Part shown: piece after piece, positions 3,097 through 40,187 of the stretch
How positions within the stretch are numbered: position 1 is the stretch's first letter
Layout of the letters: every line of letters starts with the position of its first letter
Assembly: GCA_048538275.1 (NCBI GenBank)
Contig: JBLYPW010000001.1
Coordinates: 38,244 to 102,243 of the forward strand
Origin: Candidatus Komeilibacteria bacterium
GTDB lineage: Bacteria > Patescibacteriota > Patescibacteriia > UBA1558
DNA: 64,000 nt
Direction of reading: 5' to 3'
Notes under the pieces: generated by a model
What the model was told of the DNA's origin: nothing
What the model saw: the letters and a program-made list of their open reading frames with translations, nothing else
Database searches by the model: none
Made by a program: the position numbers and the translations under genes

Positions 3097-5314
3097 TCTT
3101 TTCTTCATAGTAACGGATTATTTTCCGTACCGATTGTTCCTCAGCGCGTGAGCTGTAATAGATGGTTTCTTCAGCAGAATCCTTATAGGCTAGTATAACC
3201 ACTTTTCCGTGATTGTGACGACCGGTTCTACCCAAGCGTTGGATATAGCGCCTGACATCACTGATCGGTTCATAAAAAACCAGAATATTAACGGCAGGAA
3301 AATCCAATCCTTCCTCACCGATAGAGGTGGCAACCAGTATTTGTATTTCTTTGTTGCGGTATTGTTCTAGGACTTGTTCCTGCTCTTTCTGCTTCATTCC
3401 GGGATCGCCATAATTGCTACTAGTGCCTGTTAGTTGGCCACAACTTACCTTGGGATGCTTCTTTTTTAGGAAGCGCATTATTTTGCGCAGACTATCACGA
3501 TATTTTACAAATATCAGCATCTGTTGCCCTTTTTCCAGGTCTTTAATCAGATCTGTAATAGCTTTCAATTTAGGATCACGCCAAGCATCGCTCCAATCAA
3601 TTTGATCATCTGCTGCCATCATGCTAGATAACTTGGGCGGGTAGTTATTAGTTGGCCAGATGTTGAAATGTACTAACCAAGAGATAATTTTCTTGATATT
3701 AGCATTTTTCATCATCAGTAGACAAGATGGTTTGGGAGCGGTTTTATATTCTACATACACTGTGAGTAAATAACCCGCTAGACGAGATACTCTTTCTTCC
3801 AGGTAGTCTAAGGCGTATTTTAGACGACATGTCAGGCTCCAAATAGTAAGCTGCTCAATGAGTGCGGCGTCGTTTTGATGTTTAGCTTGGACTTTTTTTA
3901 GCTCTACTTGCAGTGCATTACCTAGCTTTTCAAATCTATCCAGATGTATGTCTATGATTTTACCGCGATTATTAGTTTGACAATACCAGGACATGTCTTG
4001 GCGTATTAGCTGTTTGAGTTTTAGTATGCTTTTGGCTAATTCCAGCTGCAGTTTTCTTTTGATCGGTTCACGGAGCATGTCGGCAACAACGCCGAGAATA
4101 TAGTTATTTTTAGCGAAGAATCTGCGTGAGGGGCTAGGCGCTTTGTGATATTCGTAGAACTGTTTTTGCATGAAGTAGGTGAACTCGGGCATGCCGTAGT
4201 GTAAACGCTCTATGGCATTACCTAGTTTCATGGCGATTGCCCAATCTATCAGAGCAAAACCCTTTTCATGACGACTGGGTATCTGTTTTAGTATTACTTG
4301 CAGCTCTTCCATGAATTTATTGAACTGCTTGATGCGAATACCAACTACTTTGCCGGCCAGATTGCGATAAACGTAGTCTGATAAGTTTTTACCGCTTATT
4401 CTTTGTAGGCGTTTCCAGTTTTGCGTTAGCATCGTGATGAGTTGCTGTTTGTATAGCCTTTGTTGGGGTGATTGCTCTTTGTTTAAAAGGAGCAGTTTTT
4501 TAAAACGAAGGTATGTATATGGCTTTACATCAGGACTATCATAGCTTCTTACCAATACTTGGCTATCATCAATCTGTAGCTTTTTCTGTACTTCTATCAT
4601 TTTTGATAGATCGGCATCAGGACTAGCGGTTAATCCCGTGATGAGTGGAGGCTGACTGGCGGATAGGTAATGTTCAGCTATACGCGCATAGGCGTGATTA
4701 CCGCTAAGATGATGTACTTCGTCAAACACTATTAGACCGATATCCTCCGCTCTGCCCACACCACTGTTTTTTGCTAATTCTTCCAGGATTGTTTCTGCTG
4801 TAGCTACAATTATGTCATTTGTTTGCCACATTTTTGGCCTTTTCTTTTGGCTAATGCGACCAGTCAGATAAGCTGTTTTTGCTTTAGCCAAAGTTTTTGA
4901 CATTGCCATATCTTGTTGGATAGATAGTGGCTTTGTCGGAGTCAAAAATAACACCTTTTTGTTGGATTCTAAAATATGAACTGATTCCAAAATCGCAACA
5001 TAAGTTTTACCCAAACCCGTTGGCAGTATAACTAGTGAGTTATTTAGTAAAGCCTGGAGTGCGATAGCTATTATATATGGTCTAGCTTCAAAAGTGTCAT
5101 TCATCAACTGTGGGTGAAGCAAGTAGATATCTGGTGTACGCATAACGCGCGTGTGACTACTCACACCAAAGCCGGCATTTAAGATATTGCGCCACATCAC
5201 CGGCGATTTTTTTTCTTTACTCAACATTTCTTCCCGCCAAAAAATATCGGCTTGGGGATTAATGTCAAGTAAAGACATAAGATTCAGTTGCTGAGCTGTC
5301 TTTTTCTTGGACAT
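3074..5314 (-). CDS. SF2 helicase of the Hef/FANCM/RIG-I-like (DExH, TASP motif III) family, helicase-only
   Basis: Walker A PTGLGKT, motif II DEVHH, motif III GLTASP, motif VI QRLGRTGR. A large inserted domain lies between the RecA lobes. No C-terminal ERCC4 nuclease domain. Confidence 0.6.
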   Translation of the reverse strand: MSKKKTAQQLNLMSLLDINPQADIFWREEMLSKEKKSPVMWRNILNAGFGVSSHTRVMRTPDIYLLHPQLMNDTFEARPYIIAIALQALLNNSLVILPTGLGKTYVAILESVHILESNKKVLFLTPTKPLSIQQDMAMSKTLAKAKTAYLTGRISQKKRPKMWQTNDIIVATAETILEELAKNSGVGRAEDIGLIVFDEVHHLSGNHAYARIAEHYLSASQPPLITGLTASPDADLSKMIEVQKKLQIDDSQVLVRSYDSPDVKPYTYLRFKKLLLLNKEQSPQQRLYKQQLITMLTQNWKRLQRISGKNLSDYVYRNLAGKVVGIRIKQFNKFMEELQVILKQIPSRHEKGFALIDWAIAMKLGNAIERLHYGMPEFTYFMQKQFYEYHKAPSPSRRFFAKNNYILGVVADMLREPIKRKLQLELAKSILKLKQLIRQDMSWYCQTNNRGKIIDIHLDRFEKLGNALQVELKKVQAKHQNDAALIEQLTIWSLTCRLKYALDYLEERVSRLAGYLLTVYVEYKTAPKPSCLLMMKNANIKKIISWLVHFNIWPTNNYPPKLSSMMAADDQIDWSDAWRDPKLKAITDLIKDLEKGQQMLIFVKYRDSLRKIMRFLKKKHPKVSCGQLTGTSSNYGDPGMKQKEQEQVLEQYRNKEIQILVATSIGEEGLDFPAVNILVFYEPISDVRRYIQRLGRTGRHNHGKVVILAYKDSAEETIYYSSRAEEQSVRKIIRYYEEKNKKTRPS

Positions 5315-14441: not shown

Positions 14442-16046
14442 TTAATTTGAGCTAAATCCTTTTGTATTTGCTGCTTCAAGCGCGCTAAATATAATTTGCA
14501 TGTCTGATTCAAATTGTTCTTGCGTGATATTTCCAGCAACTTCTTTTGCGTATTCTACTTTTTGACTATTTTCTATTTCATCTTTAGATTTTTTATATTC
14601 ATTTGGATAATATTCCTCAAGTGATTCAACTGCTAATTCAAAAATTTGCCCGTTTGTAAATAAATATGGATAGCCAGCTTTAAATTGGTCATATTTTGTT
14701 TGTTGTTCGCTGTTAGGTTTGTCTATTAGAACAACTGCTTTGTCTTTATATATTGGGTTGTCCGATCCAGCTAGTGGAACAAATAATTTATGAACAGCTA
14801 ATAAACTTGGTTCTTGCTCGTCAATATCTCCACCAGCAAATATTATTTTAATTCCTTTATATTTTGTTGAGTAAAAACGCTTAATAACGATGTTAATAAA
14901 CTCAAATTCACTTTTTCCCTCGACTATTATAAAATTTCTAGGTAAGAGTAAGTCAGACGGACTACCACCCAATAGATCAAAGATTACATCAATTTTTTCT
15001 GCATCACTTACTTCTGTTATTTGGGTAATTTTATTTAATTTTTCAACCTTATGAATTTTTTGACAGTCATGATTCTCTACCACTAAAACAGACGAATGCG
15101 TGTTAATGAATACTTGGTCTGTATCGCAAATATCAAGTAAAGCTTTTTTTAAAGCTCTTTGAGCAGAGGGGTGCAGATGTAATTCTGCCTCATCAATTAA
15201 AAAGAGAAATGTGCCACCGCCACTTTGTTCTTTTCTATAATCTGCAAAAGCTTGAATAATAGATAGCATTATCGCCCTTTGCATTCCGTCGCCTTTATCT
15301 TCAGCTTTTGTTTCAATCCCGTCATCCACGGTTGTGTCAAAGCTTTTTAAAAGATCATTGAAATTTGGCGGATTTACTCCAAACTTAACTTTTGTGCCAT
15401 CTGGAAATTGTTTTTGAAGATAAACCTCAACTTTCGTACCCAGTTTATCAAGCTCTTTTCTAACTTCTGACGAATCGCTATCAAATAATTTTGAAAATTG
15501 AGTTTTAAAATCAATGTAATCTTGTGAATTGTCAATAATAGCGGTTAAAACTCCGGATAACATTGTTCCTATGGGATTCTTGTCTTTGTATTTTGAAACA
15601 TCATCAAGGCGTATCTTTGTATTCACATATTCTAATTTCGGTAAAAATTCATTTATTGCAGTATCTAATCCTGACGGATTACCTTTGTCTTCAGCACCAA
15701 CAAGATATTTTCTTTTATGATCTACGCTAGTTTTTAATACAGAAAAGTTAGTATTGCCGCCAAGCATTGTTCTAATTTTAGTTTTATTTGCATCAGTTGT
15801 TAGTTTTTCAATATCAGATTCAATCACATCTTCAAAAAAAATTTCTACGGAAATTTTATTTGATTCTTCTTTATTGAAATGTTCATCTGCTTTGGATGAT
15901 TTCGAAGTATAAAACCAATCTATTGATTCAAAAAAATTTGTTTTACCATGATTGTTCTGACCGACAAAAACTGAAAATTTATTCGGCAAAACTTCAACCT
16001 CTTGAATTGAACGGTAATTTTTTACAATAATTTTTGATATTCTCAT
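14442..16046 (-). CDS. OLD-family ATP-dependent endonuclease (ABC-type ATPase + Toprim)
   Basis: N-terminal AAA_15/ABC ATPase (VFVGQNNHGKTNF Walker A; LFLIDEAELHLHP Walker B/D-loop). C-terminal OLD-type Toprim (IIVEGKSE ... GGDID). Confidence 0.7.
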   Translation of the reverse strand: MRISKIIVKNYRSIQEVEVLPNKFSVFVGQNNHGKTNFFESIDWFYTSKSSKADEHFNKEESNKISVEIFFEDVIESDIEKLTTDANKTKIRTMLGGNTNFSVLKTSVDHKRKYLVGAEDKGNPSGLDTAINEFLPKLEYVNTKIRLDDVSKYKDKNPIGTMLSGVLTAIIDNSQDYIDFKTQFSKLFDSDSSEVRKELDKLGTKVEVYLQKQFPDGTKVKFGVNPPNFNDLLKSFDTTVDDGIETKAEDKGDGMQRAIMLSIIQAFADYRKEQSGGGTFLFLIDEAELHLHPSAQRALKKALLDICDTDQVFINTHSSVLVVENHDCQKIHKVEKLNKITQITEVSDAEKIDVIFDLLGGSPSDLLLPRNFIIVEGKSEFEFINIVIKRFYSTKYKGIKIIFAGGDIDEQEPSLLAVHKLFVPLAGSDNPIYKDKAVVLIDKPNSEQQTKYDQFKAGYPYLFTNGQIFELAVESLEEYYPNEYKKSKDEIENSQKVEYAKEVAGNITQEQFESDMQIIFSALEAANTKGFSSN

Positions 16047-16052
16047 ATTGAA

Positions 16053-16880
16053 TTAATAACCCAAGGCAAGCTGATCAAGCATATCGGGTCCCTTTTCTCG
16101 ACCGACTTCCTGATAAATCTCAAGGACTTGCTCATATGTTCCGGCTCCACCCACCAAATCCCAAAATTCTTTACCAAGTAAAACCTCGTCTTCCAAATCC
16201 ATGTAATTCACAACGAAACTATGCTTATATGTTGCTTTATTTACACCATAGGGGTTATAGGCAGTGGCGTAATATGCTTTTGCTTTTGGATATTGTTTGT
16301 AAGTTATCCCGTGAATTTGTAGCAACCGTCCTGTTGCCTCTAAACATTGTCCTTTATTCGGTTTTGGGCTTTTTATCTCAATAAAAAGTTCCGTGCCGTC
16401 TTTTTTGACAATATATAAATCAGCAATGCTGGTTCTATCTGCACTTTTCCCATCTCCAGCAATTTTAATAATTTCTTCGACAAATTCAGGATAACTTGAT
16501 TTCATTCCACCTGTGCCAATTTTGCTTGTGATTTCTTCAATTCGTTTTATAGCCTTAAGTGAGATTTGACCAGTAACACGATGTCCTCGCTCTGCGTGTT
16601 TGTGATTATCAAGTGCGATAAGACGAGCACACTCTTCAAATGTCGTGCCAAGTTTTGTAGAAAATGACCTTTCAAATTCCGTTATCGTTAGTAGTCCGTC
16701 TGGCAATAAGGATTCGTGGAACGGTTTTAAATCGCCTTTCTTTGATTCTTGGCGCAATGGCCTTAGTTGCTTAGGGTCAAAACCGTTGTCAGTTTTCTCT
16801 TCTACCATTCCTTGAATAAATCCTTCAAGGTAACCTTTAATTAATTGTCTGGTGTTTTTTGTAATCATATTTTTTGCCAA
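16053..16880 (-). CDS. putative type II restriction endonuclease (PD-(D/E)xK fold)
   Basis: ADLYIV...ELFIEIKSPK fits the PD...(D/E)xK catalytic motif. Its 3' end overlaps the start of the adjacent DNA MTase by 16 bp, implying an operon. Confidence 0.5.
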   Translation of the reverse strand: MAKNMITKNTRQLIKGYLEGFIQGMVEEKTDNGFDPKQLRPLRQESKKGDLKPFHESLLPDGLLTITEFERSFSTKLGTTFEECARLIALDNHKHAERGHRVTGQISLKAIKRIEEITSKIGTGGMKSSYPEFVEEIIKIAGDGKSADRTSIADLYIVKKDGTELFIEIKSPKPNKGQCLEATGRLLQIHGITYKQYPKAKAYYATAYNPYGVNKATYKHSFVVNYMDLEDEVLLGKEFWDLVGGAGTYEQVLEIYQEVGREKGPDMLDQLALGY

Positions 16881-18058
16881 ATTAAAATACTTTCATAAAA
16901 TGCGCCATTGCGCCGTCCTGTACGACGATTAACATGGCGTTCAACCCTCCCGATTGATTTAAACCCAACATCTGAGGGATTATATAAATTATGTTTATCG
17001 TTAACAACGATAGCCATAATTCCGTTTTTAGTCATATAATTGCGTGTGTGCAATAATACATCATTTATACCTTTTATATATTCTTTTTTTGCATCTTCTG
17101 AAGATCCTCTTTTTGCTGGTCCAATTTCTCTGGTTTCGTTATTTTTTAACCCAAGTAATTCATAAGCGTATTTATGCTGATCATGATAATCAATTAAACC
17201 AATGTAAGGTGGTGATGTAAAAACCATATCAATATCTTTCGGCAAGATTACTGTTCGTGAGTCATCATGAAATATTTTGACATCTGCTTTAGTTCTAATT
17301 TTGTTAAATTCTTTTACTCGTTGTAGAGCATCAATAGAATAGCGACTTAAAAATTTATAAGCTTCTTGAACAGGCGTACAAACTCTTCTATGTTTAAAGC
17401 ATTTATATGGTGTTTTCTGTGGTTTTTTAGGGAAGTCTAAATCATAATGCGTAACTAATCGAGCTGAACGTGCCGAGCGAGAAAGAATGATTTTTAATAA
17501 ATCTTGATATTCATAGTCTTTTATCAAACGCAAGTAGCAAAGAAGTTCTTTTTTTGTCCTATCTGCAAACCAGTCGTTAATATATTCATTTTTTGTAGCG
17601 AAAAGTTTATTAACTTTTTCATCATTTAAAAAATCTTTTTCGTATTTCGACATTCGTTTTAAGATATCACGAATTTCCTTATCTAAAAGTTCAATATCAT
17701 ATTTATCAGTTTTAACCTTAGAAAGCAGGGTGTTAAAAACAGAAATATCTGTGCCGATTGAATCAATTCCTAGTGCATTTGCTTCAACAAGTGTTGTTCC
17801 TGACCCACAAAAAGGATCATAAACTAGTTTGGGATTGAATTTACGCAAAAAAATTTCTGCCATTTGAGGAATAAATTTTCCCATGTATGGATGAAGTCGA
17901 TGAACGTGCTTTGTTCGCGCTATTTCCGGTAAATCATTTTCCCGCCAATTTAAATTAAGTGTTTCTAAATCTGTATCAAAATTAATGCTTGAAAAATTGG
18001 TCAACGGAGTTTGTTGATATTGTTTAGCGATTTTTTGAGCTACTTTATTATCGTACAT
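16865..18058 (-). CDS. DNA amino-methyltransferase (N6-adenine or N4-cytosine), alpha-type motif order
   Basis: Motif I DPFCGSGTT near the N-terminus and motif IV TSPPY about 200 aa later (N6_N4_Mtase family). The SPPY variant hints at m4C but does not prove it. Confidence 0.7.
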   Translation of the reverse strand: MYDNKVAQKIAKQYQQTPLTNFSSINFDTDLETLNLNWRENDLPEIARTKHVHRLHPYMGKFIPQMAEIFLRKFNPKLVYDPFCGSGTTLVEANALGIDSIGTDISVFNTLLSKVKTDKYDIELLDKEIRDILKRMSKYEKDFLNDEKVNKLFATKNEYINDWFADRTKKELLCYLRLIKDYEYQDLLKIILSRSARSARLVTHYDLDFPKKPQKTPYKCFKHRRVCTPVQEAYKFLSRYSIDALQRVKEFNKIRTKADVKIFHDDSRTVILPKDIDMVFTSPPYIGLIDYHDQHKYAYELLGLKNNETREIGPAKRGSSEDAKKEYIKGINDVLLHTRNYMTKNGIMAIVVNDKHNLYNPSDVGFKSIGRVERHVNRRTGRRNGAFYESILIWQKI

Positions 18059-26361: not shown

Positions 26362-26414
26362 CCATTTCATTCACAATTGGCCGCTAGGCGCAATTGTCTT
26401 ACGACAATTTATCT

Positions 26415-27617
26415 ATGAAAGACCCGATTTATGAAGAGATAGTTTCCACCACAAATTTAGCTGAGGCTTATTTTGAGATAGGTGAGAAATTTATATTGGA
26501 AGGGAAGTCTGGTTATAGCGGTTTGGATGGTTTGCAGATACAAGAATTTGATACTAATTTAGAAAAGAATTTACAAGAAATTCGTGCAGATTTGATAACA
26601 TTGGCACCGCTCATGCCTTTAAATTGCAGCCAAATTCCTAAAAAAAATGGAAAACTGCGAGATATATATATTTTATCTTTGCATGATAGGATCAAATCTC
26701 AGGCAATAATCAGAGTGCTAGAACCATTATTAGAAAAGGTTTATTCACCTTTTCTTTTTTCGTATAGGTCTACGCACCCTACACATCTAGCGGCTCGTTC
26801 AGCAGTGCGCCGTTATCATCGGTATTTTGGGAAAGATTATATTTTATTGACGGATGTTGAGAAATATTTTGATAATATTGATAAAAAAATTATCATTAAT
26901 AAATTAGAGAAATTTGGCTTGCAGTCAGCTACCTTGAGTTTAATTCAATTGTTTCTGGATCAGAAGATTTTAAGGAATAATAAGTTGCTTTCGTTAGATA
27001 GAGGCTTAATGCAAGGCGTTCCTTTGGCGGTGTCATTAGCTAATTTCTATCTCAATGAAATTGATTGGTTAATTGGCAAAAAAGTGTCTTTTTATAGGCG
27101 AGTTAGTGATGATATTTTAATTATGGATAAAAGCGAGCATAAAGTTCTGGAAATTTATGATTTGTTACAGATTGAGTTAGATAAATTGGGTCTAAATATG
27201 CACCCGACAAAAACCAAATTAATGAAAAATAGCGAATTGTTTGAGTATTTAGGGTATTTATTTCATAATAATAAAGTGGCCATCGCTACTCGGAGCCAAG
27301 AAAAGTTAATTGCCAAGTTGGAAGCAGAACTACATTATTATCCCATTGCGCTAGACAAAAAAATTGAACGATTAAGGCAAAAAATATTTACCGGCGCAGA
27401 TTCTATTTCAGCTTACCTGCAAAATACTATTCGTCATTATAGGTTTGTAGATGATTATGATCAGATAAAGGAAGTTTCAGAGAAAATTTATCATATATTA
27501 ACTAGGTATTTTTTTAAAACTTATACGGCGCGTCATCGTCGGCGGACAAAAAATATTTGTCGTGATTTGGGCATGCCATCATTTTATAAGATGTTCGTAA
27601 AATATCATCATGAATAA
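26415..27617 (+). CDS. stand-alone reverse transcriptase (group-II/retron-like RT motifs, no maturase/endonuclease domains)
   Basis: RT motifs read off the translation: IPKKNGKLRDIYILS (motifs 1/2), SYRSTHPTHLA, LLTDVEKYFDNIDKKII (motif 3), RGLMQGVPLAVSLANFYLNEID (motif 4, QGxxxS..LaN type) and FYRRVSDDILIM (motif 5, catalytic xSDD). The track ORF begins at a TTG; the first ATG is at 26415. Confidence 0.75.
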   Translation: MKDPIYEEIVSTTNLAEAYFEIGEKFILEGKSGYSGLDGLQIQEFDTNLEKNLQEIRADLITLAPLMPLNCSQIPKKNGKLRDIYILSLHDRIKSQAIIRVLEPLLEKVYSPFLFSYRSTHPTHLAARSAVRRYHRYFGKDYILLTDVEKYFDNIDKKIIINKLEKFGLQSATLSLIQLFLDQKILRNNKLLSLDRGLMQGVPLAVSLANFYLNEIDWLIGKKVSFYRRVSDDILIMDKSEHKVLEIYDLLQIELDKLGLNMHPTKTKLMKNSELFEYLGYLFHNNKVAIATRSQEKLIAKLEAELHYYPIALDKKIERLRQKIFTGADSISAYLQNTIRHYRFVDDYDQIKEVSEKIYHILTRYFFKTYTARHRRRTKNICRDLGMPSFYKMFVKYHHE

Positions 27618-29310
27618 TTTACATAACATCGTGAACTTATATACTAAAAGACAAAAGCAAAAACAGGACTTTGGTTATTTTGGTTGGCAAAATTATCACC
27701 GGGAGTATTTGTTGGGTTTTTGGAAGGCGCAAAAGCAACAAATTCTTAGAGTCGGGTGGTTAAGTTTGGCGGCTATTGTTATAGAAGTGACAATTTTTTT
27801 TCTGGCCCGGGTGGTCATTAGAAATTTATCATTGCAATTGAGCATTATAAGCCTATGGTATGTGGCGGCGTTTTTGGTAGTGGCGGTGATAATTTATTTA
27901 TTACTTAGTTATTTCAGTATTTTTTATCAAAAGAGACTTTTGGTTGATTTATTAAATGATTTAAGAAAGTTATGGTTTAAGATTGTTTTACGACGACCAA
28001 TATTGGCGTCGGATAGAGAGGAAAAAGATAATGCGATTGCCAAAGTATCTTATCATTTTTCTTTGCTAAGCATGGGTTTTAATAGTGCCTTAGTGGGAAC
28101 GTGGCAAGCTATTTTAATTGTCATGGTGTTGTTATTATTATCCGCTTTTGTTAGCTGGACAATGTTTATATGGAGTATAATAATTATTATTTTTGCTGTA
28201 ATTTTTGCTATCGTCGCTTATAAAATAGCTTTTATTTATGTGAGTAGAGAGCAGACATTTTATACTCAGATTATCAAACATATGTTGAAAGTTTTTTATG
28301 ACTTGGAAAATCATCAGCTACATAACCGCGAGGCAATGGCTTTGCAGAGGTTGAATAAGTTGGTAGAGCTTGATAGTTGGTTTCGGGTGCGTAGAGATAT
28401 TTGGATGAAATTTGGCGCTGATATATTATTTGTTTTGATATTGTTGGGCGGGGCAATTTTGTATATTGTTCAGCTTTATTGGCCACATATTTTTAGGCAG
28501 GAAGCGGCCAGTTTATTTTTATATGGTGTTATAGCAACGTATAGCGTGCGTTTATTTTATCTGAGTTTGCGGGCTGGTCTTTTTTATGTGCCATTGCGTT
28601 TGGGTTTGTGGTTGTCAATACCAGAAAAAAAGCCGGCAAAAATAAGAATTGTAGAAGAAATAAAAAAAATATGTTTTCGTTCGGATAAGTTTAGGTTATT
28701 TGATGAGGATAAATATTTTTGCAATCAGTTTTGTTTTCAACAAGGTCAAAGCTATTTAATCGTTGATAAAAATAGAGACCGTTTGGATGCCTTGGCACGG
28801 ATTTTTGCTGGCATGGCCTTGTCTAGGGCCAAGCCATGGATTTTGTCGGTTAATGGGCAACGTTATTTATATAAGGATTATTTTAAATATCACACACCAA
28901 ATTATTTGATTTCCGCGAACTGGCGATTTCAGGGCACGGTGGGAGATTTTTTATTACCTCAGGCAGAAGATAGTATTTCGCCTAGTGCAGTGACAAAGAT
29001 ATATGAACAATTGGCGCCATATAATGCGTGGCATTTTTTGTTTAAAAAAAACAAGGTCTTGGCTCAAAAAATAGATTTTGTTGCTTCTTCTATTGAGCAA
29101 AGAGCTTTATTACAAATTGCCTACGCCATCATTCACCAAGTGAATTTTGTTATTATTGATAGTAGTTTGGTTGATTTGCAAGGCAAGCAATTTGTAGCGG
29201 CGATACGATTGTTGCGACAGAAAGTAGCCAAATGTATTATTATAATATTATCAACGGCTGATAACGCCATTTTAGATTATGAAGAAAAGTTCTCACTTAA
29301 AGAAAAATAG
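27610..29310 (+). CDS. ABC exporter-like half-transporter (TMD+NBD) with a catalytically degenerate NBD
   Basis: Six N-terminal TM helices, then an NBD-like region that is colinear with ABC domains. Walker A is replaced (LIVDKNRDRLDAL instead of GxSGSGKST). The signature is degenerate (ASSIEQRALLQIAYAI vs LSGGQRQR). Walker B/catalytic Glu is lost (VIIDSSL vs LLDEATS). The start overlaps the RT stop by 8 nt. Confidence 0.55.
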   Translation: MNNLHNIVNLYTKRQKQKQDFGYFGWQNYHREYLLGFWKAQKQQILRVGWLSLAAIVIEVTIFFLARVVIRNLSLQLSIISLWYVAAFLVVAVIIYLLLSYFSIFYQKRLLVDLLNDLRKLWFKIVLRRPILASDREEKDNAIAKVSYHFSLLSMGFNSALVGTWQAILIVMVLLLLSAFVSWTMFIWSIIIIIFAVIFAIVAYKIAFIYVSREQTFYTQIIKHMLKVFYDLENHQLHNREAMALQRLNKLVELDSWFRVRRDIWMKFGADILFVLILLGGAILYIVQLYWPHIFRQEAASLFLYGVIATYSVRLFYLSLRAGLFYVPLRLGLWLSIPEKKPAKIRIVEEIKKICFRSDKFRLFDEDKYFCNQFCFQQGQSYLIVDKNRDRLDALARIFAGMALSRAKPWILSVNGQRYLYKDYFKYHTPNYLISANWRFQGTVGDFLLPQAEDSISPSAVTKIYEQLAPYNAWHFLFKKNKVLAQKIDFVASSIEQRALLQIAYAIIHQVNFVIIDSSLVDLQGKQFVAAIRLLRQKVAKCIIIILSTADNAILDYEEKFSLKEK

Positions 29311-30775
29311 TTTTTTATTGTCTAGGCAAAAGAAAATTCTGGTAAAGAAATTATTTTTTGTAATTATTATTTTAGCCTGCATTATTTATATTTTACATTT
29401 GGTAGGAAATAGGGCATGGCCTTGGTTAAATGATAAAAATTATAATCCATTGATCACTAAGCGCATTAATGCGCCAATAGATTTCAATATTTTTTTCAAT
29501 GATGTGGTGGGAGACGATGTTTTGTCTAGTAGGATTATAGCTGCTATTGATAGCGCCAGATCATCTATCAAAATAGCTATGTTTGCTCTTACCTCGCCAC
29601 AAATAATCAGCGCCCTGGATAGAGCTGATAAACGCGGCGTGATTATAAAATTAGTCTATGACGAAAGCAATCGCAACCGTTATGCTGTGGCGCTGGGTAA
29701 ATTTTTTGATACTGGCATGGCTAGAGGCGCAGGAGTGGATAATCCTAAGCATAATATTGGTTATTATATGCATCATAAGTTCATTATTATTGATGAAGGG
29801 TTTGATGATGAACAATTGATTACGGGCAGTTTGAATTGGACTGATTGGCAACAACAGTATGATCCTAGTTATTTTATTATTACCAGGCGGCCAGAGATTA
29901 TCAATATTTACAATCAAGAGTTTATGCGTCTTTGGCGTGGGCAATCGGGTGTGGCCAAATTGCGAGATAATGATTATCAGCCATGGATTGGCGAGTTTAA
30001 GTATAATAATGCGACATTGGAATTGTGGTGGGGGCCAGGATTCAAAGAAAATTCTTATCGTCAAAGATTATTGGATCTTATCACTGCCGCCACGCAAAGT
30101 ATTGAAGTAGCAATTTGGCAACTGACCGATCGTGATATCGCGCAAGCACTTTTGGTCCAAGCTACGAAAGGGGTTTCGGTAGCCATCGTGACTGATGATT
30201 ATACTTTATGGTCACGAGATAGTGCATTTCCTTATTTGATTAAGCAAAAGGAGCAATTAGGCTTAGATAATTTAATAATAGCAAGTGATAGTTGGCGCTC
30301 AGTTGATCTTGATAATATTTATAAAATAGTTGGCAGGGATTTCTTTAATTCTTATTTTCATCGTCATGGTGCGCTGATAGACAATAAAATTTTAGCGCTT
30401 GGAACAGCTAATTGGTCATATAGAGGGTTCTGGAGTAATGATGAGTCTGGTTTGGTGACGGATGATTTTGATATGATTCAGGCTTGGCAGCAATCGTGGG
30501 ATTATCACTATCATAGTTTACAGGCACAAGAGCTACATTTTTTTAAAAACGAACAAGTTTTAACTTTGGGTGATAAATTTGATCAATTTTATGGAAAAAA
30601 TTTATTAGCAATTTGTGAGCTGAGCGGTGACTCGGTGAAGCCCTTGATCTTGAGTCAGACCATTTTAGCTGATTTAAATCAAAAAATTATGTTGAAGGGA
30701 GATTGTCCAAATGTGGTGCAGGTGTTTATTTATGATGACAATAATAAATTATTGGGTGCTGGTCGAGCCAATTAA
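29279..30775 (+). CDS. membrane-anchored phospholipase D (HKD) superfamily protein, two HKD-like motifs
   Basis: A single N-terminal TM helix. HKD motif 1 is HHKFIIIDEG...GSLNWT. The second motif, HRHGALIDNKILALGTANWS, is degenerate with K replaced by H. The start overlaps the preceding gene by 32 nt. Confidence 0.6.
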   Translation: MKKSSHLKKNSFLLSRQKKILVKKLFFVIIILACIIYILHLVGNRAWPWLNDKNYNPLITKRINAPIDFNIFFNDVVGDDVLSSRIIAAIDSARSSIKIAMFALTSPQIISALDRADKRGVIIKLVYDESNRNRYAVALGKFFDTGMARGAGVDNPKHNIGYYMHHKFIIIDEGFDDEQLITGSLNWTDWQQQYDPSYFIITRRPEIINIYNQEFMRLWRGQSGVAKLRDNDYQPWIGEFKYNNATLELWWGPGFKENSYRQRLLDLITAATQSIEVAIWQLTDRDIAQALLVQATKGVSVAIVTDDYTLWSRDSAFPYLIKQKEQLGLDNLIIASDSWRSVDLDNIYKIVGRDFFNSYFHRHGALIDNKILALGTANWSYRGFWSNDESGLVTDDFDMIQAWQQSWDYHYHSLQAQELHFFKNEQVLTLGDKFDQFYGKNLLAICELSGDSVKPLILSQTILADLNQKIMLKGDCPNVVQVFIYDDNNKLLGAGRAN

Positions 30776-30839: not shown

Positions 30840-31421
30840 ATGAAAAAAGCAAAATTATTATTACATGCCTGTTGCGCGCCGTGTTCCATTTATGTGGTAC
30901 AAAAATTGGCGCAGGATTATAATTTGACTATATATTATTATAATCCCAACATACATCCGGCTGGTGAATATCAAAAACGGTTACAAGAGATTATTCAATG
31001 GTCAAAAAAGGAAGGCATTGCTTTGCAAGAGGCGGATTATCGTCCGCAGGATTGGATTCAGACAATGCAGGGTCATGAATGGGATAAGGAGGGCGGCGAG
31101 CGTTGCGCTATGTGTTATGATTATCGGTTGCGACAGACGGCAGAATTTGCATCTGTTCATAATTTTCCAATATTTTCCACTACCTTAACCATTAGTCCTC
31201 ATAAAAAAGCGTCTGTTATTAATCCGATCGGACAAAAATTGGCCGAAGAATATGGTATAGATTTTTTGGCGGCTGATTGGAAAAAACAAGATGGTTTTAA
31301 AATTGCTTGTCAGCTAAGTCGCGAGGCCGGTTTTTATCGGCAAGATTATTGCGGTTGTATCTATTCTTATCGTGATAGATTATTAAAAGATAAAGCTAAA
31401 TATGAAGCTGCAGGAGTTTGA
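30840..31421 (+). CDS. queH: epoxyqueuosine reductase QueH (DUF208)
   Basis: N-terminal LLLHACCAPCS Cys cluster, a C-terminal CGC motif, and the expected size. Confidence 0.75.
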   Translation: MKKAKLLLHACCAPCSIYVVQKLAQDYNLTIYYYNPNIHPAGEYQKRLQEIIQWSKKEGIALQEADYRPQDWIQTMQGHEWDKEGGERCAMCYDYRLRQTAEFASVHNFPIFSTTLTISPHKKASVINPIGQKLAEEYGIDFLAADWKKQDGFKIACQLSREAGFYRQDYCGCIYSYRDRLLKDKAKYEAAGV

Positions 31422-32430
31422 TTATCATTTACCAGTGGAGCTGATAGCTCAGACGCCGGCGGATAAGCGTGATCATTCACGTTTATTAGTTTATAGTGCT
31501 GGACAGATTGAACATAGAAACTTTTTCAATCTCTCGGATTATTTACAAGCCGGCGACGTTTTAGTATTGAATGATAGCAAAGTATTTCCGGCGCGGCTAC
31601 TGGGTCGGCGGCAAGGTACAGGCGGTAAAGTGGAAATATTTTTATTACAAAACAAGGACCATGGCCAGTGGGAGTGTTTAGTAGGCCATGCCCGTGCTCA
31701 AGTTGGCTTGGTAGTGGATTTTGAATGTGGCTTGCATGCTACTTTACAAGCCAAGTTGGCAGATAGCTGGCTAGTACAATTTAATAAAGAGGCTGAGGAG
31801 TTAATGGAGATTATCAATAAAATTGGTGAAACTCCCTTGCCGCCTTATATTAAGACCATGGACGGTCCGCAGGTGCGCCAGCGCTATCAGACAGTATATG
31901 CTCAGCCAGTCGGCTCAGTAGCCGCGCCGACCGCTGGTTTTCATTTTACGTCAGAATTATTAAATAAATTAAAGAAACAAAACGTACAAATTGAATATGT
32001 AACTTTGCATGTTGGTTTAGGAACTTTTGCGCCGGTAAAAACAGATAGGATTGAAGATCATCAAATGCACTCGGAGTATTATGAAGTAGCTGATGAAACT
32101 TGGCATAGTATACAAAAAGCTAAAAAAGAAAATAGAAGAATTATAGCGGTGGGCACGACCGCTACTAGGGTTTTAGAATCAGTGGCTAGTTCTAATAAAC
32201 TTTCTGGCTGGACAGATATATTTATTTATCCCGGTTATAAATATAAAATAGTGGACTCATTAATAACAAACTTTCATTTACCAAAATCCACCTTATTAAT
32301 GTTAGTATCTGCTTTGTTGGATAATAGGGGGAGTGTTGATGGTATTGTTGAATTAAAAAGAATTTATCAGGAAGCTATAAATAATCATTATAGATTTTAT
32401 AGTTTTGGGGATGCAATGTTGATAATTTGA
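31402..32430 (+). CDS. queA: S-adenosylmethionine:tRNA ribosyltransferase-isomerase
   Basis: MKLQEFDYHLPVELIAQTPA... and the conserved C-terminus ...[11 protein letters not shown]. It overlaps the queH stop by 20 nt. Confidence 0.85.
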   Translation: MKLQEFDYHLPVELIAQTPADKRDHSRLLVYSAGQIEHRNFFNLSDYLQAGDVLVLNDSKVFPARLLGRRQGTGGKVEIFLLQNKDHGQWECLVGHARAQVGLVVDFECGLHATLQAKLADSWLVQFNKEAEELMEIINKIGETPLPPYIKTMDGPQVRQRYQTVYAQPVGSVAAPTAGFHFTSELLNKLKKQNVQIEYVTLHVGLGTFAPVKTDRIEDHQMHSEYYEVADETWHSIQKAKKENRRIIAVGTTATRVLESVASSNKLSGWTDIFIYPGYKYKIVDSLITNFHLPKSTLLMLVSALLDNRGSVDGIVELKRIYQEAINNHYRFYSFGDAMLII

Positions 32431-32482: not shown

Positions 32483-34411
32483 ATGAGCATGGAAAACCCA
32501 GGCTGGCTAAAAAATAAATATAATGATTTACATAGCTCTAAAGAGGTAAAAGCTGCAGTTCGTAGTGAAGAAGCACAAACAGGTGAAAAACTATCTCAAA
32601 ACCCAGAAAAGCAGATTCAAAGCTATTTAGATCGTTTAGAAAAGCTAGTCCTTGATCCAGATAAGAAGCAATCAAGGAAGATGATGGGTAAAGAACAAAG
32701 ACCAAGAGCAGTATCTTTACTACGTGAAATGGTAATGAATGAATATATTCGTCCCAATAAAGAAAAACTAGCAGAAGGAGCAGCCCGTGTAGAAGAAAGA
32801 GCAGCTAGGAATTTAGGAATGGATATTGAATATGGAGAAGAACAATTAGAACAAAGAGGAGAAATAGCTATAGAAGATTTAGAAAAATCACTAGATAATT
32901 GGATTTCTTATCTTTCAGATGCTAATGAACCATATCCAACTTGGTTTAGATATTATGCTTTTAGAAATATATTAAAGCTAGGAGATTATGATAAAGACAA
33001 AAAAGAGTTTACCAAGAGAACTAAAGGTAGTACTAAACTATTCCCCGAAATAGATAGGGGAGCCTTAGCATATATACAGCAAAATATAGAAGCTTCTAAA
33101 GATCCTAAAATACTTGCCAAGCTTCAAGAAGCACAAAAACAAGCAGCTAATGGTGATGTTCCAGAAGATCAGCTTATCACCAAAGAAAAGGTACAAAACT
33201 TTTCTAATCTTTCCTTTGCTAAGCAATATGCAGAAGGAATATCTAAAAATGGTGAAATAACCCCAGAGCTTAGAGCCATAACAGAAGGTAAATGGGTTAA
33301 GTATCAACAAGGTACAGAACCAACAGCTCTTTGGTCATCTCTACAAAACAAAGGCACAGCTTGGTGTACAAAAGGTTTTGCTACAGCCAAAACTCAACTT
33401 GAAGGTGGAGATTTTTATGTATATTACACATTAGATAAAAAAGGCAGTCCTACTATTCCTAGAATAGCTATAAGAATGCAAGGAGAGAATGTAGGAGAAG
33501 CCAGAGGAGTAGAAGACAGTGATCAGAATATGGAAGGTAATATGATAGCTATTGCCGAAGAAAAGCTAAGTACACTTCCAGGAGCTGAAAGCTATAAAGA
33601 AAAAACAGCTGACATGAAAATGCTTACTAGTATATATAACAGACATAAGCAAGGAGAAGAACTTATAAAAGAAGACCTTATCTTTTTATATGAAATAGAT
33701 AAACCTATTCAAGGCTTTGGTTATAAAAAAGATCCGAGAATAGAAGAAATACGAGACAAAAGAGATGTAACCAAAGATGCATCAATTGTATTTGAATGCA
33801 CTCCAGATCAAATAGCTAAAAATATTAATGAAGTAAATGAAAATACAGTAGCATATATAGGGCAATGGAATATACCAGCTTTTCAAGTAATTAAAAACCA
33901 TCCCAATATTATTTACTTTTATGAATCTTTCCCAGATAAAAAGATATTCATGCAAACTCTAGAAACAGATCCTAGTATAGATTCACCTGATACAGCCAAA
34001 CAGTCTCTTAAAGATAAGAACATCTATCTTTCAGATTGGGGAAAGGATATTTTAGAAAAAACAGAGTTTAGTAAAGAAAAACAAGAATATGATTTAGTGA
34101 GATTTACAGTAGAGCAATTAGGATTTCCAAATGGTGCTACTACTGATGAAATATATAATAAAGCTCAAGAGCTCGGACTTGAATTATGTCCAGCTGAAAT
34201 TGGACCTCAATTAAGATTACAAAGTACTAGTAAGGAATGGATGCTTATTGCTATGAAACAGATTATAGACCGTGATGGCGCTCCGAAGCTGTTCGATCTG
34301 AATGATTATGGTGTTCAGCTGGCACTGGTCAGCAACGATGCAGGGTCTGACGACAGGTGGGATTCGGACGGTAGGTTTGTGTTTCATTACCGCCCCAGTA
34401 GCAAAGCGTAG
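32483..34411 (+). CDS. hypothetical 642-aa protein whose C-terminal ~44 aa form a DGR variable region (putative DGR target)
   Basis: ORF with purine-rich composition distinct from its neighbours. The last 132 nt (34261-34392) match a downstream non-coding copy, with mismatches only at positions where that copy has A. Confidence 0.6.
   Translation: MSMENPGWLKNKYNDLHSSKEVKAAVRSEEAQTGEKLSQNPEKQIQSYLDRLEKLVLDPDKKQSRKMMGKEQRPRAVSLLREMVMNEYIRPNKEKLAEGAARVEERAARNLGMDIEYGEEQLEQRGEIAIEDLEKSLDNWISYLSDANEPYPTWFRYYAFRNILKLGDYDKDKKEFTKRTKGSTKLFPEIDRGALAYIQQNIEASKDPKILAKLQEAQKQAANGDVPEDQLITKEKVQNFSNLSFAKQYAEGISKNGEITPELRAITEGKWVKYQQGTEPTALWSSLQNKGTAWCTKGFATAKTQLEGGDFYVYYTLDKKGSPTIPRIAIRMQGENVGEARGVEDSDQNMEGNMIAIAEEKLSTLPGAESYKEKTADMKMLTSIYNRHKQGEELIKEDLIFLYEIDKPIQGFGYKKDPRIEEIRDKRDVTKDASIVFECTPDQIAKNINEVNENTVAYIGQWNIPAFQVIKNHPNIIYFYESFPDKKIFMQTLETDPSIDSPDTAKQSLKDKNIYLSDWGKDILEKTEFSKEKQEYDLVRFTVEQLGFPNGATTDEIYNKAQELGLELCPAEIGPQLRLQSTSKEWMLIAMKQIIDRDGAPKLFDLNDYGVQLALVSNDAGSDDRWDSDGRFVFHYRPSSKA
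34261..34392 (+). repeat. DGR variable repeat (VR) at the 3' end of the 642-aa gene
   Basis: Aligns over 132 nt to 34846-34977. All 18 mismatches are non-A here versus A in the other copy. A GC-rich imperfect hairpin follows (ccccagtagcaaagc / gtagcttgctacgggg). Confidence 0.8.
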
Positions 34412-34496
34412 CTTGCTACGGGGCAAGCAAGTTAGAAACTTAGAAATTTTGCCTGCCTGCCGAAGCTTCGGCGTAGGCAGGATCCTTTGTTTTTTT

Positions 34497-34598
34497 AATT
34501 CTTTGATTTCTTTGATGCTTTGATACTTTGCCTGCCCCGTAGGGAGGAACGACCGTACGGGGACCCTTTGATTTCTTTGACGCTTTGATACTTTGAGT
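34497..34598 (+). repeat. two copies of a ~32-bp unit built from CTTTGAT(T) iterons, each followed by a GC-rich hairpin
   Basis: ctttgatttctttgatgctttgatactttg (34497-34526) and ctttgatttctttgacgctttgatactttg (34566-34595). Adjacent hairpins: cctgcctgccgaagc/gcttcggcgtaggcagg and ccccgtaggg...ccgtacgggg. Confidence 0.5.
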
Positions 34599-34845
34599 CG
34601 CTACATTTTTTTGGTATAATTAATTTAGTTTGGTCTATCAGGTGGTCATGGCTTTCTGAAACCTTTCTAACGAACATAAATCGAGAATGTAAGCGGTTAA
34701 GATTTCTTGCAGAGTGATTTGTGTATCGTTTCCAAAAGAAATTAACTTGGTGTGCATTGCTGGAGGATTTTAGATCCCAAATAAAATACAGTCCATAGTC
34801 TTTTTAATAAATTACTTGGACAGTGATATAGATGGCACTGCACAT

Positions 34846-34977
34846 ATTATAGACCGTAATGGCGATCCGAAACTGTTCAATCTGAATGATAATGGTGATC
34901 AGCTGGAACTGAACAGCAACAATGCAAGGTCTGACAACAGGTGGAATTCGAACAATAGGTTTGTGTTTCATTACCGC
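34846..34977 (+). repeat. DGR template repeat (TR), non-coding
   Basis: A copy of the VR with A at all 18 variable positions (many AAT/AAC codons). No in-frame start codon upstream; a TAG stop lies in frame at 34771-34773. A hairpin ccgtag(ctactatagt)ctacgg follows. Confidence 0.8.
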
Positions 34978-35184
34978 TAGTCATTTCTTTTCCGTAGCTA
35001 CTATAGTCTACGGTTTTTCTTTTCTGGATTTTTTAGACTGTTTTTCCAGCCGCCAAACATTTTGCCAATCTCATTAAATTTTAAGGATATTGTTTCATAT
35101 TGCTTATTAGAAATAATTTTAGCTTCCCAGGATATGTGTATTAAAAATTTAAGAGTATCTAAGATTAAAATGCATTTAGAAATT

Positions 35185-35310
35185 TTATCTGCTTTTTTAG
35201 AAAATAAAGACAGTAATGATGGAATTCTAGAATTAAAAAAAATTTATCAAGAGGCGATTGAACAACAATATAGATTCTATAGCTTTGGTGACGCGATGTT
35301 GATTTTATAG
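35185..35310 (+). pseudogene. duplicated, diverged 3'-terminal fragment of queA (last ~41 codons)
   Basis: Encodes [41 protein letters not shown], matching the queA C-terminus [41 protein letters not shown]. By eye the nucleotide identity is about 78%. There is no upstream queA body. Confidence 0.7.
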
Positions 35311-35428
35311 TAGGAGTTGACACTTTTCATAATATATGGTAGTTTAATATATTAAGAACAACAGTGTTCTTTTATAACCGTAGTCAGTCTTTTGGTAGAC
35401 AGACTGCACAAAAACAAAGGAGTTTGTC

Positions 35429-36097
35429 ATGACAGAAAGAAATGTCACAGACGAGCAATGTTTAAAAATCAGACGACAAACAGACGATCTTGTTCGTCGA
35501 GTTGAGCAAGGAAACCTTCCTTATGATCAAGTAAGAAATTATTTGCAATATTTGATTGAGGGTAAGAGATTAAAGGTTATGAAGTCCTTTTGGATAGAAA
35601 AAGATGGTATCATCCATTTCTCTGTCACTTCAGATGGCACAACTGGTCCTGAACGGATCAAACGCCTTGAAGACAAAGGTTTTTGCATCAGTGATTTTGC
35701 CAAACGGTTATTAAATTCTTCAGAGTTTAAGCCCACCAATGGCATAACTGCTGAAGTTGCTGTTCTCAAAGGTGATCTTTTTTCAGATGGTGACCGCATC
35801 ACTAAAAAGATCAGAGCTTATGCTAAGAAGCAAAAGTTTACCATTCCTAATGCAGAAATCGCTTGTCTTATTCGTGAACAATTCACAGATGAAGATATTA
35901 AGGTAATGGGACTAAGTTGGATTATTGCTATGCACGAACCCATCAAGGATTCTGACGGTGATCCGAGCTTGCTCAGTACGCTTCGTGAAGGCGATGGCCA
36001 TTGGCTGGATGCCTATTGGGATGAGCCTGACGGTAGGTGGAATTATAACTGTGGTTTTGGTTTTGCCTTTGTTCAGTCGCAAGTATCTAGTACTTAG
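35429..36097 (+). CDS. hypothetical protein sharing the C-terminal ~40-aa module of the DGR target
   Basis: The C-terminus DSDGDPSLLSTLREGDGHWLDAYWDEPDGRWNYNCGFGFAF aligns with the VR/TR-encoded DRDGAPKLFDLNDYG...SDDRWDSDGRFVF. The shared pattern is DxDGxP.L..L...G...L......D.RW.....F.F. Confidence 0.45.
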   Translation: MTERNVTDEQCLKIRRQTDDLVRRVEQGNLPYDQVRNYLQYLIEGKRLKVMKSFWIEKDGIIHFSVTSDGTTGPERIKRLEDKGFCISDFAKRLLNSSEFKPTNGITAEVAVLKGDLFSDGDRITKKIRAYAKKQKFTIPNAEIACLIREQFTDEDIKVMGLSWIIAMHEPIKDSDGDPSLLSTLREGDGHWLDAYWDEPDGRWNYNCGFGFAFVQSQVSST

Positions 36098-36783: not shown

Positions 36784-36865
36784 TTTTTTTGATTTTTTGT
36801 TTTTTATTTTGGGAGATTTTTTTAACCTCTACTAGTAGTTTAGCACACTTTTTTACAAAAGTCAA

Positions 36866-37142
36866 CCCCGTTAGAGGTTTAGAGGGTTTTTTAACCTATT
36901 TTTACTATAATTTTGCTTAGGTTTTGTGTTTAGTGGTTTTTGTTGCCATATATTATATATGGTGTAGGAAAATGTATTTATAGACCCAAACCTCTAACGA
37001 GGCAGACCCCGTTAGAGGTTTAGAGGGTTTTTTAACCTATTTTTACTATAATTTTGCTTAGGTTTTGTGTTTAGTGGTTTATGTTGCCATATATTATATA
37101 TGGTGTAGGAAAATGTATTTATAGACTAAACTTCTCATGAGG
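36866..37142 (+). mobile_element. tandem pair of ~136-bp MITE-like elements with 15-bp terminal inverted repeats
   Basis: Unit A is 36866-37002 and unit B is 37007-37142, separated by 4 bp (caga). The two differ at only a few positions. Each starts with ccccgttagaggttt and ends with aaacctctaacgagg (degenerate to aaacttctcatgagg in B), which is its reverse complement (14/15). Each has an internal TATAAT-like box. Confidence 0.55.
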
Positions 37143-37198: not shown

Positions 37199-37551
37199 TT
37201 ATATAATAAAGGTTTATAATTGTGGTACTTATGAAAGACTATCCCAAATAAGTTTGGGACTCCAGGGGGTTAGCCTGGAACGCCAGATATGGATCACCTC
37301 CCTCCCTTAATGCTACGCAGCTCAACAGCATTGGCGTAGTTGATTTGGCAATCACGATTGACTGGCATTTCTTCTCCTTTCATTGTTTTGCTAGCGCAGT
37401 TGTGAGCTAGCTCAATTTGACTTTTTCTACTTAGTTGGTGATTATTGCGATAATCACTATCTTTATGAGCCAATAATCCCTCCCTTGTTTGAGTTTAAAG
37501 TACCTATTAATATTATTATAAACTATTCACTTTTTGCCAAGTGGAAAAAAA

Positions 37552-39605: not shown

Positions 39606-40187
39606 ATGATGAAGAAAAATTTTTTAGCGAACATAAGTAAAGATTTGCGTGCTTATCAAAAGGAACGCAATGCTATATTTGGTAAATCTCGTCAGATTTT
39701 GCAGGCAGCTAAAGAGTCAATTTTTGCTACTCATCGGCAAGATTATAAAAAGGCAGCTGACTTTTTGAAAAAAGCGGAAATTATTTTGAAAGAATTATCT
39801 AAAAATTATGACAAGGCCAATCGTCTGCGTTTTGAAGGGTCTTATAAAGCGGCGCTGGAAGAATATGTAGAAGCCAAGTTTTTTTATATGGTGATGACCG
39901 GCAAGCAATTGGGACCGATTGCGATTGGTAGCATCGGACCGGAAGAATATATTGGCGGTTTAGCTGATTTGACGGGTGAGTTGGTGCGGCAGGCGGTTTT
40001 GCAAACTATTGCTGAAAATTATGACCGAATTCAGCCTTGGCGTGACTTAGCTGAAGAGATTGTTGGTTTTATGACTAAATTATATCTCACCGGTTCATCG
40101 CGGCAGAAGTTTGATGAATCTAAGCGCAACCTTAAGCGTTTAGAAAAGATTCTTTATGACATTAAATTGCGTCCCAGTGACGATTAA
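39606..40187 (+). CDS. translin-family protein
   Basis: All-helical, about 190 aa. EEYIGGLADLTGELVR and the C-terminal RQKFDESKRNLKRLEKILYDIKLR parallel the translin EDYLSGVLILASELSR / RKRYDGLKYDVKKVEEVVYDLSIR blocks. Confidence 0.5.
   Translation: MMKKNFLANISKDLRAYQKERNAIFGKSRQILQAAKESIFATHRQDYKKAADFLKKAEIILKELSKNYDKANRLRFEGSYKAALEEYVEAKFFYMVMTGKQLGPIAIGSIGPEEYIGGLADLTGELVRQAVLQTIAENYDRIQPWRDLAEEIVGFMTKLYLTGSSRQKFDESKRNLKRLEKILYDIKLRPSDD

Follow-up and report, generated by a model that had tools for sequence, protein, structure and literature searches.

The 64-kb window analyzed here, part of a 487,038-bp contig of a Candidatus Komeilibacteria metagenome-assembled genome (MAG; locus tags ACKKL5_), carries an incomplete diversity-generating retroelement (DGR). 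Its parts are a target gene ending in a variable repeat (VR), a template-RNA gene holding the matching template repeat (TR), and half of the accessory gene avd, with no reverse transcriptase (RT). The repeat pair is a genuine DGR footprint, in which the tip of a conserved Patescibacteria protein has been rewritten. We favor, with moderate confidence, the explanation that the locus was recently beheaded, i.e., lost its enzymes, and is now a frozen remnant. The system is of a known kind and implies no new mechanism; its interest lies in a series of decay states, in the comparison of two target paralogues, and in the leader of the template RNA. The locus was compared with 60 genomic loci of target-family members (labelled L001 etc.).

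The repeat pair and its target gene

32483–34411, + strand: target gene of 642 codons, ACKKL5_00390 (MFW0837446.1; PGAP start 32489), from the list of open reading frames (ORFs)
33920–34408, + strand: C-terminal C-type-lectin-fold domain bearing the VR, modelled separately
34262–34393, + strand: VR, by ungapped base-by-base comparison, repeat finding, and self-BLAST
34392–34424, + strand: GC-rich hairpin at the end of the VR, overlapping the target stop codon (DNA ΔG −13.7, z −3.7)
34452–34497, + strand: terminator-like hairpin downstream of the target gene, with a T-run after it (ΔG −12.5, z −4.1; T-run read from the sequence)
34846–34977, + strand: TR, with 43 adenines in 132 nt, by ungapped comparison and repeat finding
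35429–36097, + strand: 222-aa ORF ACKKL5_00400, whose C-terminal ~150 aa are paralogous to the VR-bearing domain, by alignment

The VR and the TR align over 132 nt without gaps at an offset of 584, as obtained by ungapped comparison and, independently, by repeat finding and self-BLAST. Repeat finding reports a 136-nt direct repeat (34258–34393 and 34842–34977, spacing 584 nt); the first position upstream of the aligned 132 nt differs (G at 34261, T at 34845) and lies outside the repeat. Within it there are 16 mismatches, at VR positions 34274, 34281, 34288, 34295, 34307, 34314, 34323, 34328, 34329, 34337, 34343, 34352, 34361, 34367, 34370, and 34371. At every one of these positions the TR has an A, replaced in the VR by G (11 times), T (three times), or C (twice), and the 89 non-A positions of the TR show no mismatch at all. 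Given 43 adenines in 132 nt, the probability that 16 of 16 mismatches fall on TR adenines by chance is about 1.6e-8.

A preliminary description of this DNA had already stated that every mismatch has A in the template copy and that none is of any other kind, and this stands, as do the three mismatch examples quoted there. Its count of 18 has to be lowered to 16 (18/0 was predicted and 16/0 obtained), and its VR, placed at 34261–34392 and 585 bp from the TR, moves up by one base at an offset of 584. The same description had the TR lying in no ORF, which is strictly untrue, as a 54-codon TTG-initiated ORF (34816–34980) spans it in the frame of the VR; this ORF is most likely not a gene because it overlaps the conserved RNA helices described below. 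Finally, hairpins had been noted after both repeats, as in DGRs. Both are indeed present (z −3.7 after the VR and −4.1 after the TR), but conservation is confined to the one following the TR, the hairpin at 34392–34424 showing none in the related loci compared.

The VR forms the 3′ end of the 642-codon ORF and ends 18 nt ahead of its stop codon. Fifteen of the 16 changes are non-synonymous, and the affected TR codons are AAT or AAC in 9 of 14 cases. The mutated stretch covers 34274–34371, and the 3′-most 22 nt of the VR (34372–34393) are identical to the TR. These 22 nt and the non-conserved hairpin are the features resembling a homing signal (initiation of mutagenic homing, IMH); they define no IMH/IMH* asymmetry. 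A metagenome scan with the VR/TR 21-mer AGGTTTGTGTTTCATTACCGC returned three contigs, none of them otherwise similar to the window.

Judged by its homologues, the target is a member of a Patescibacteria-wide family of ~640-aa proteins, with more than 2600 members at 57–69% full-length identity in many Patescibacteria classes. The protein has no match in Pfam, NCBIfam, or PADLOC. In an alignment of 29 family members the body is highly conserved and the last ~45 residues are hypervariable, over a fixed scaffold of the form DRxGxPxVFxL...W.....FVFRxRK. A Foldseek search of the full-length model against the PDB yielded nothing significant and was informative only for the separately modelled C-terminal domain. 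In that model the VR is placed on a C-type lectin (CLec) fold at the C-terminus of the target, like the VRs of known DGR targets.

The 222-aa ORF ACKKL5_00400 shares 27–34% identity with the C-termini of target-family members. As a second VR served by the same TR it was rejected, since the 123-nt ungapped alignment contains many mismatches at non-A bases of the TR.

Complete cassettes in related genomes

Self-BLAST of the 60 related loci, in which a TR/VR pair was regarded as A-biased if at least 80% of its mismatches fell on one base (A, or T if the TR is on the minus strand of the locus), identified such pairs in approximately 20 loci. An RT of 310–350 aa adjoins the target gene in 15 of the 60, and 13 of these 15 also have an A-biased pair. 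All family RTs whose sequences were read contain LGNLTSQ or LGNVTSQ together with YADD (YSDD in one case). Their best match in the PDB is 8ub7 (E 7e-43), a 328-aa chain labelled ‘Reverse transcriptase’, which we take to be the Bordetella phage enzyme bRT.

The order of elements in the complete relatives is the target gene with its C-terminal VR, a spacer of ~450 nt with a promoter and a structured leader, the TR, and a stem-loop, followed by avd on the minus strand and then by an RT of the DGR clade. In the 15 related loci with an RT, the enzyme is encoded downstream of the target, within ~0.5 kb of the TR. The window resembles five of the loci (L046, L061, L003, L024, and L013) at 66–72% nucleotide identity over ~34597–35198, and the homology stops at 35198. 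By the orthologous target, the leader RNA, and the 3′ stem-loop that it has in common with complete cassettes, the locus is assigned to a Patescibacteria-specific DGR lineage. The identification of the repeat pair as a DGR in the preliminary description is thus borne out by related genomes, which carry the same target with VR, TR, avd, and a DGR-clade RT.

The truncated avd gene and the missing RT

35001–35198, − strand: truncated avd, C-terminal 65 codons and stop (coding from 35198 down to 35004), by tblastn with family Avds and Pfam
35186–35312, + strand: stray 3′ fragment of queA, C-terminal ~42 codons and stop, by repeat finding and reading of the junction
26394–27617, + strand: group-II-intron-like RT (PGAP: reverse transcriptase domain-containing protein), by Pfam RVT_1

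At the place where the complete relatives have avd, the window retains its last 65 residues (KKADKISKC...KNRRL) and the stop codon, while ~43 codons at the N-terminal end have been lost together with the start. The remnant is 65% identical to residues 44–101 of the Avd of L003 (tblastn, E 1e-24) and covers positions 53–106 of the 107 in the Pfam profile bAvd (PF22296) with 36.9 bits, intact family Avds scoring 54.5 and 43.4 bits. No start codon in its frame yields an ORF of at least 50 aa. A complete Avd accessory protein is accordingly absent from the window, which encodes the C-terminal half only.

The remnant runs into a fragment of queA that is 77% identical in nucleotide sequence to the 3′ end (32306–32430) of the real queA gene (31402–32430). 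The two pieces overlap at a 9-nt microhomology, ATCTGCTTT, and ATCTGCTTT recurs at the corresponding site of the real queA. We infer that illegitimate, microhomology-mediated recombination deleted the RT and truncated avd from its 5′ side.

The junction region also contains an 82-codon chimeric ORF (35062–35310, + strand), which is antisense to the avd remnant and then enters the queA fragment. A protein was apparently annotated at this place by PGAP, as the tag ACKKL5_00395 falls between 00390 and 00400.

No DGR-clade RT lies next to the TR in the 64-kb window: in Pfam scans of all 45 window ORFs of at least 150 aa the only RVT_1 protein is the one at 26394–27617, and tblastn with the 15 family RTs retrieved only this unrelated RT at 26.4 kb, at 23–29% identity. 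A six-frame regular-expression search for the YxDD and SQ motifs missed this RT, which has VSDD, so that Pfam scans were needed to detect it. The preliminary description had regarded the element as recently active, and against this stand the lack of a DGR-type RT in the window and the reduction of avd to its C-terminal half.

The template-RNA gene

34484–34600, + strand: array of seven (C)TTTGA motifs just upstream of the promoter of the DGR RNA, by repeat finding
34593–34620, + strand: promoter-like site, TTGAGT, 16-nt spacer, and TATAAT preceded by TG (10 of 12 matches)
34641–34845, + strand: structured 5′ leader of the DGR RNA, ~205 nt with six helices, by RNAalifold
34641–34656: leader helix H1
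34675–34682 with 34716–34723: leader helix H2
34688–34711: leader helix H3
34750–34761 with 34834–34845: leader helix H4
34765–34777: leader helix H5
34791–34795 with 34817–34821: leader helix H6
34983–34991, + strand: U-rich segment 3′ of the TR, pairing with 34734–34742 of the leader (AAAAGAAAT with ATTTCTTTT), by a motif-anchored count
34992–35024, + strand: conserved stem-loop 14 nt past the TR (stem 34992–35013, a bulged helix of 9 bp; z −4.1), with a U-run after it

The motifs of the (C)TTTGA array are spaced by ~9–10 nt and enriched approximately 10-fold over the background of the locus; they also occur in the spacers of L001, L024, L028, L011, and L016. The array may serve to bind a regulator or act in the manner of an UP element. 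The −10 box of the adjoining promoter is conserved across related loci as TTTGnTAnAAT (alignment A2 of 19 loci).

In the same 19-sequence alignment RNAalifold predicts 45 base pairs in the leader, 33 of them with compensatory changes. Of the alignment cells concerned, 94.6% are paired, compared with 39–51% when the partners are slid against each other, and the observed values were reached in none of 500 shuffles. Helix H4 ends at 34845, abutting the start of the TR exactly. The window keeps 44 of the 45 pairs, as do complete elements; two related loci without an RT, L007 and L015, keep 30 and 43, respectively. As judged from this covariation, the leader RNA is under structural selection. In Rfam it has a partial and weak match to RT-7 (RF03028) at 34681–34733, which skips 139 positions of the model and scores 23 bits where the gathering score is 116.8, and none of eight related loci reaches any Rfam threshold in the leader region. 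The covarying leader 5′ of the TR would thus be a concrete RNA element of a DGR lineage of the candidate phyla radiation (CPR) for which no Rfam family matches at threshold.

Downstream of the TR, the U-rich segment and its counterpart in the leader form a candidate duplex between sequences on the two sides of the TR. Over 11 loci, 86 of 99 cells are paired, with switches from A-T to G-C and from A-T to T-A. RNAduplex energies for the leader against the 3′ flank of the TR did not exceed those of shuffles, and MAFFT put the short concatenated segments out of register; the long-range duplex therefore rests on the motif-anchored count and is suggestive only. The stem-loop that follows is found at the same place in 13 of 13 loci folded, with differing stem sequences, and may serve as a terminator of the DGR RNA or as a binding site for Avd.

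Decay states in related loci

Three other members of the family have lost parts of the cassette. L007 (11776–12436) and L015 (11814–12418) each contain an A-biased TR/VR pair, A accounting for 16 of 19 mismatches in L007 and for all 14 in L015, and neither avd nor an RT is present in the sequence examined. The closest relative of the window is L001 from Komeilibacteria CG_4_10_14_0_8_um_filter_37_78 (81% nucleotide identity). Its stretch 4858–5183 still contains the VR along with the TTTGA array and the promoter, but the leader is cut short after ~110 nt, where glycosyltransferase genes take over. L001 is devoid of TR, avd, and RT, and its target gene is split into two ORFs (3173–3856 and 3878–5008). 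Sequence comparison identifies L001 as a further-advanced stage in the decay of the same DGR, and such decay is evidently common in the family.

Taken with the complete cassettes, the window locus, L001, L007, and L015 form an ordered series, from a complete element through the loss of RT and avd to the loss of the TR as well. Within one very widespread Patescibacteria protein family, this series would illustrate how a hypervariable protein becomes fixed. As DGRs are usually found through their RTs, cassettes without one are invisible to surveys, and RT-anchored finders would miss the locus described here.

A second copy of the target

Among the proteins that cluster with the target at 90% identity is a second copy, ACKKL5_01910 (MFW0837733.1), encoded on the same 487,038-bp contig approximately 300 genes away. 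The two proteins differ at 11 positions in residues 1–75, at none of the 524 residues 76–599, and at 11 positions in residues 600–625. All 11 C-terminal differences fall in codons with TR adenines, and 10 of them can be reached by A-only changes. No paralogues of at least 90% identity exist for queA, queH, the 222-aa ORF, or other neighbors.

Past residue 75 the copies thus differ only at VR codons with TR adenines, which indicates that diversification occurred in this lineage. The pattern is what DGR activity would produce after a recent duplication or gene conversion, and the near-identical paralogues with different VRs would constitute a within-genome record of past diversification.

Origin and present state of the locus

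By analogy with the family, the locus can be explained as follows. In intact relatives, a complex of RT and Avd would copy the RNA comprising leader and TR, misincorporating opposite template adenines, and the resulting cDNA would replace the VR and thereby recode the CLec-fold surface of the target protein. The pattern of the 16 A-only differences, together with the family context, suggests that they were written by such mutagenic homing. Illegitimate recombination at the 9-nt microhomology would then have deleted the RT gene entirely and avd in its 5′ portion, joining the remnant to the queA fragment. What is left should still be able to encode the template RNA and be unable to diversify the target alone, so that it is most likely frozen unless an RT–Avd pair elsewhere serves it.

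Several observations weigh against a frozen remnant. The promoter, the leader, the TR, and the 3′ stem-loop are preserved as well as those of complete elements, and there is no drift at non-A positions; an intact RNA half with zero drift is what would be expected if the RNA were still in use. The window covers 64 kb of the 487-kb contig, which leaves room for an RT–Avd pair, e.g., beside ACKKL5_01910. In that second copy, residue Y609, opposite the TR codon GAT, is not derivable from the TR of the window, and for this reason a second, slightly different TR may exist. In favor of a frozen remnant, on the other hand, a search of 5.8 billion proteins found no near-identical Avd of this MAG, the best match of the remnant being 86% identical and from another source. 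No RT of the contig was found among the best 120 of at least 8000 relatives of the RT of L061, the closest cassette, and being limited to these 120 the search is weak negative evidence. A true orthologue should nevertheless rank high, because the second-best match to the L061 RT is only 72% identical.

The alternative is that the cassette is active and belongs to a multi-target DGR, with RT and Avd supplied in trans from elsewhere in the genome, for instance from beside ACKKL5_01910. The integrity of the RNA half and the absence of non-A mismatches agree with it, and the two paralogues, with 524 identical residues and 11 differences at TR-adenine codons of the VR, suggest mutagenesis after a very recent duplication or conversion. 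The results for the enzymes speak against it, as the closest Avd is not from this MAG and an RT of the contig, which would be expected near the top, did not appear among the best 120 relatives of the L061 RT; moreover, in the complete family loci examined the TR lies within ~1.5 kb of its own RT. Lack of non-A drift and intact RNA parts fit a recent loss and proteins in trans alike, and on balance we hold supply in trans to be possible but rather unlikely. With yet more reserve we consider that the window contains a ‘satellite’ DGR unit, i.e., a target accompanied by a promoter and a gene for its leader and TR RNA, with no enzymes, served by an RT–Avd pair elsewhere, possibly near the second target copy. 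If so, several dispersed modules of template and target would share one enzyme pair. The large leader, as a counterpart of the Bordetella spacer RNA transposed to the 5′ side of the TR, would then represent a distinct priming RNA architecture.

Two further explanations are far less probable than these. One would assign to the element the RT at 26394–27617, which is the sole RVT_1 protein of the window and lies on the same strand, ~7 kb upstream. Besides its low identity to the family DGR RTs, it has GLMQGVPLAVSLANFYL (QG...AVS) where DGR RTs show GLPLGNLTSQLLVNIYM (LGNLTSQ), and VSDD for YADD. Its best relatives in the PDB are RTs of group II introns (E 3e-25), with 8ub7 at merely E 7e-5, and in NCBIfam it comes closest to TIGR04416, the model for group II intron RTs (167 bits, under the cutoff of 300). 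Five unrelated genes separate it from the TR, it seems to share an operon with the genes for a 566-aa protein and a phospholipase D (PLD) nuclease, and no such RT occurs in the related DGR loci. It is very improbable that this protein is the RT of the element, and we regard it as unrelated to the repeat pair. The other explanation takes the pair for a plain duplication of the 3′ end of the gene, now decaying, and attributes its A bias to AT-biased mutation or chance; it is scarcely credible. The window GC content of ~0.33–0.42 does indicate an AT-rich genome, and in 11 of the 16 differences a G of the VR stands opposite a TR adenine. However, symmetric pressure from GC to AT should equally have left T in the TR opposite C in the VR, of which there is no case; the restriction of all 16 differences to adenines (~1.6e-8), the recurrence of avd and a DGR RT in relatives, and the structural selection on the leader are likewise at odds with drift. 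A recently beheaded and now frozen DGR remains our preferred explanation.

The group-II-like RT and other features of the window

The RT at 26394–27617 was rejected as part of a group II intron, no group II intron RNA being matched by Rfam in the window and the TIGR04416 score lying below cutoff. With its VSDD motif, it overlaps a 566-aa ORF without family match and a two-domain PLD-like nuclease (26394–30775, + strand). In PADLOC this set is matched best by a generic model for RTs (159 bits) and by UG26 (121 bits); it appears to be an RT-based operon and possibly a defense system. A small defense island of low GC content (0.33–0.34) at 14442–18058 (− strand) encodes an OLD-family ATPase-nuclease, a TdeIII-type restriction endonuclease, and a DNA methyltransferase.

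Downstream of the DGR locus, a 1.45-kb stretch nearly free of ORFs contains two 121-nt copies (36865–36985 and 37006–37126) that are 99% identical, lie 141 nt apart, and each hold the promoter-like TTTACTATAAT. At 37270–37300 (+ strand), GGATCACCTCCCTCCCTTA resembles the 3′ end of 16S rRNA; Rfam detects no rRNA, and the resemblance is probably coincidental. The gene at 39606–40187 (+ strand), adjoining those for FxsA and UvrD, encodes a protein of the Translin family (Pfam PF01997, E 6e-19). This family is typical of eukaryotes and archaea.

Comparison with known systems

Paul and colleagues are said to have published the first survey of Patescibacteria DGRs, in Nature Microbiology in 2017. 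The canonical cassette of the family agrees with ‘DGR clade 2’, which is restricted to Patescibacteria and has targets without recognizable domains (Roux et al., 2021, PMC8144416). The two have in common the host phylum, a cellular rather than viral element, and a target with a C-terminal VR and no recognizable domain or transmembrane segment. The relatives of the window locus likewise possess an RT with LGNLTSQ and YADD and an Avd, whereas the window locus itself is without the RT and without the N-terminal part of Avd.

The Bordetella phage BPP-1 DGR (mtd with its VR, avd, TR, and brt) resembles the window locus in the adenine-specific differences between TR and VR and in a variable protein of the CLec fold. 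An Avd helper and a structured RNA around the TR are features of BPP-1 and of the DGR family described here as well, and in BPP-1 this RNA is needed for reverse transcription (bioRxiv 10.1101/2023.10.23.563531; PMC6182149). The arrangement differs. In BPP-1, avd is upstream of the TR on the same strand, whereas in the family of the window it is downstream on the opposite strand. Similarly, most of the structured RNA of BPP-1, a 140-nt spacer, is 3′ of the TR, whereas here ~205 nt with 45 base pairs are 5′ of it and only a short stem-loop is 3′. Treponema denticola TvpA (PDB 2y3c) and other variable proteins with a CLec or formylglycine-generating enzyme (FGE)-type fold are also among the closest known systems.

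Regarding the RNA, motifs RT-1 to RT-19 were described by Weinberg et al. (2017, PMC5737381), RT-10 being the BPP-1 DGR RNA. The H2/H3 hairpin of the leader matches the 5′ hairpin of RT-7 (RF03028), including the flanks AGAGU...AGAGUG, at a score far below the gathering score. The candidate duplex between the leader and the 3′ flank of the TR resembles the ‘cPRT stop’ duplex of upstream and downstream sequences that has been described for many DGRs (bioRxiv 10.1101/2023.10.23.563531).

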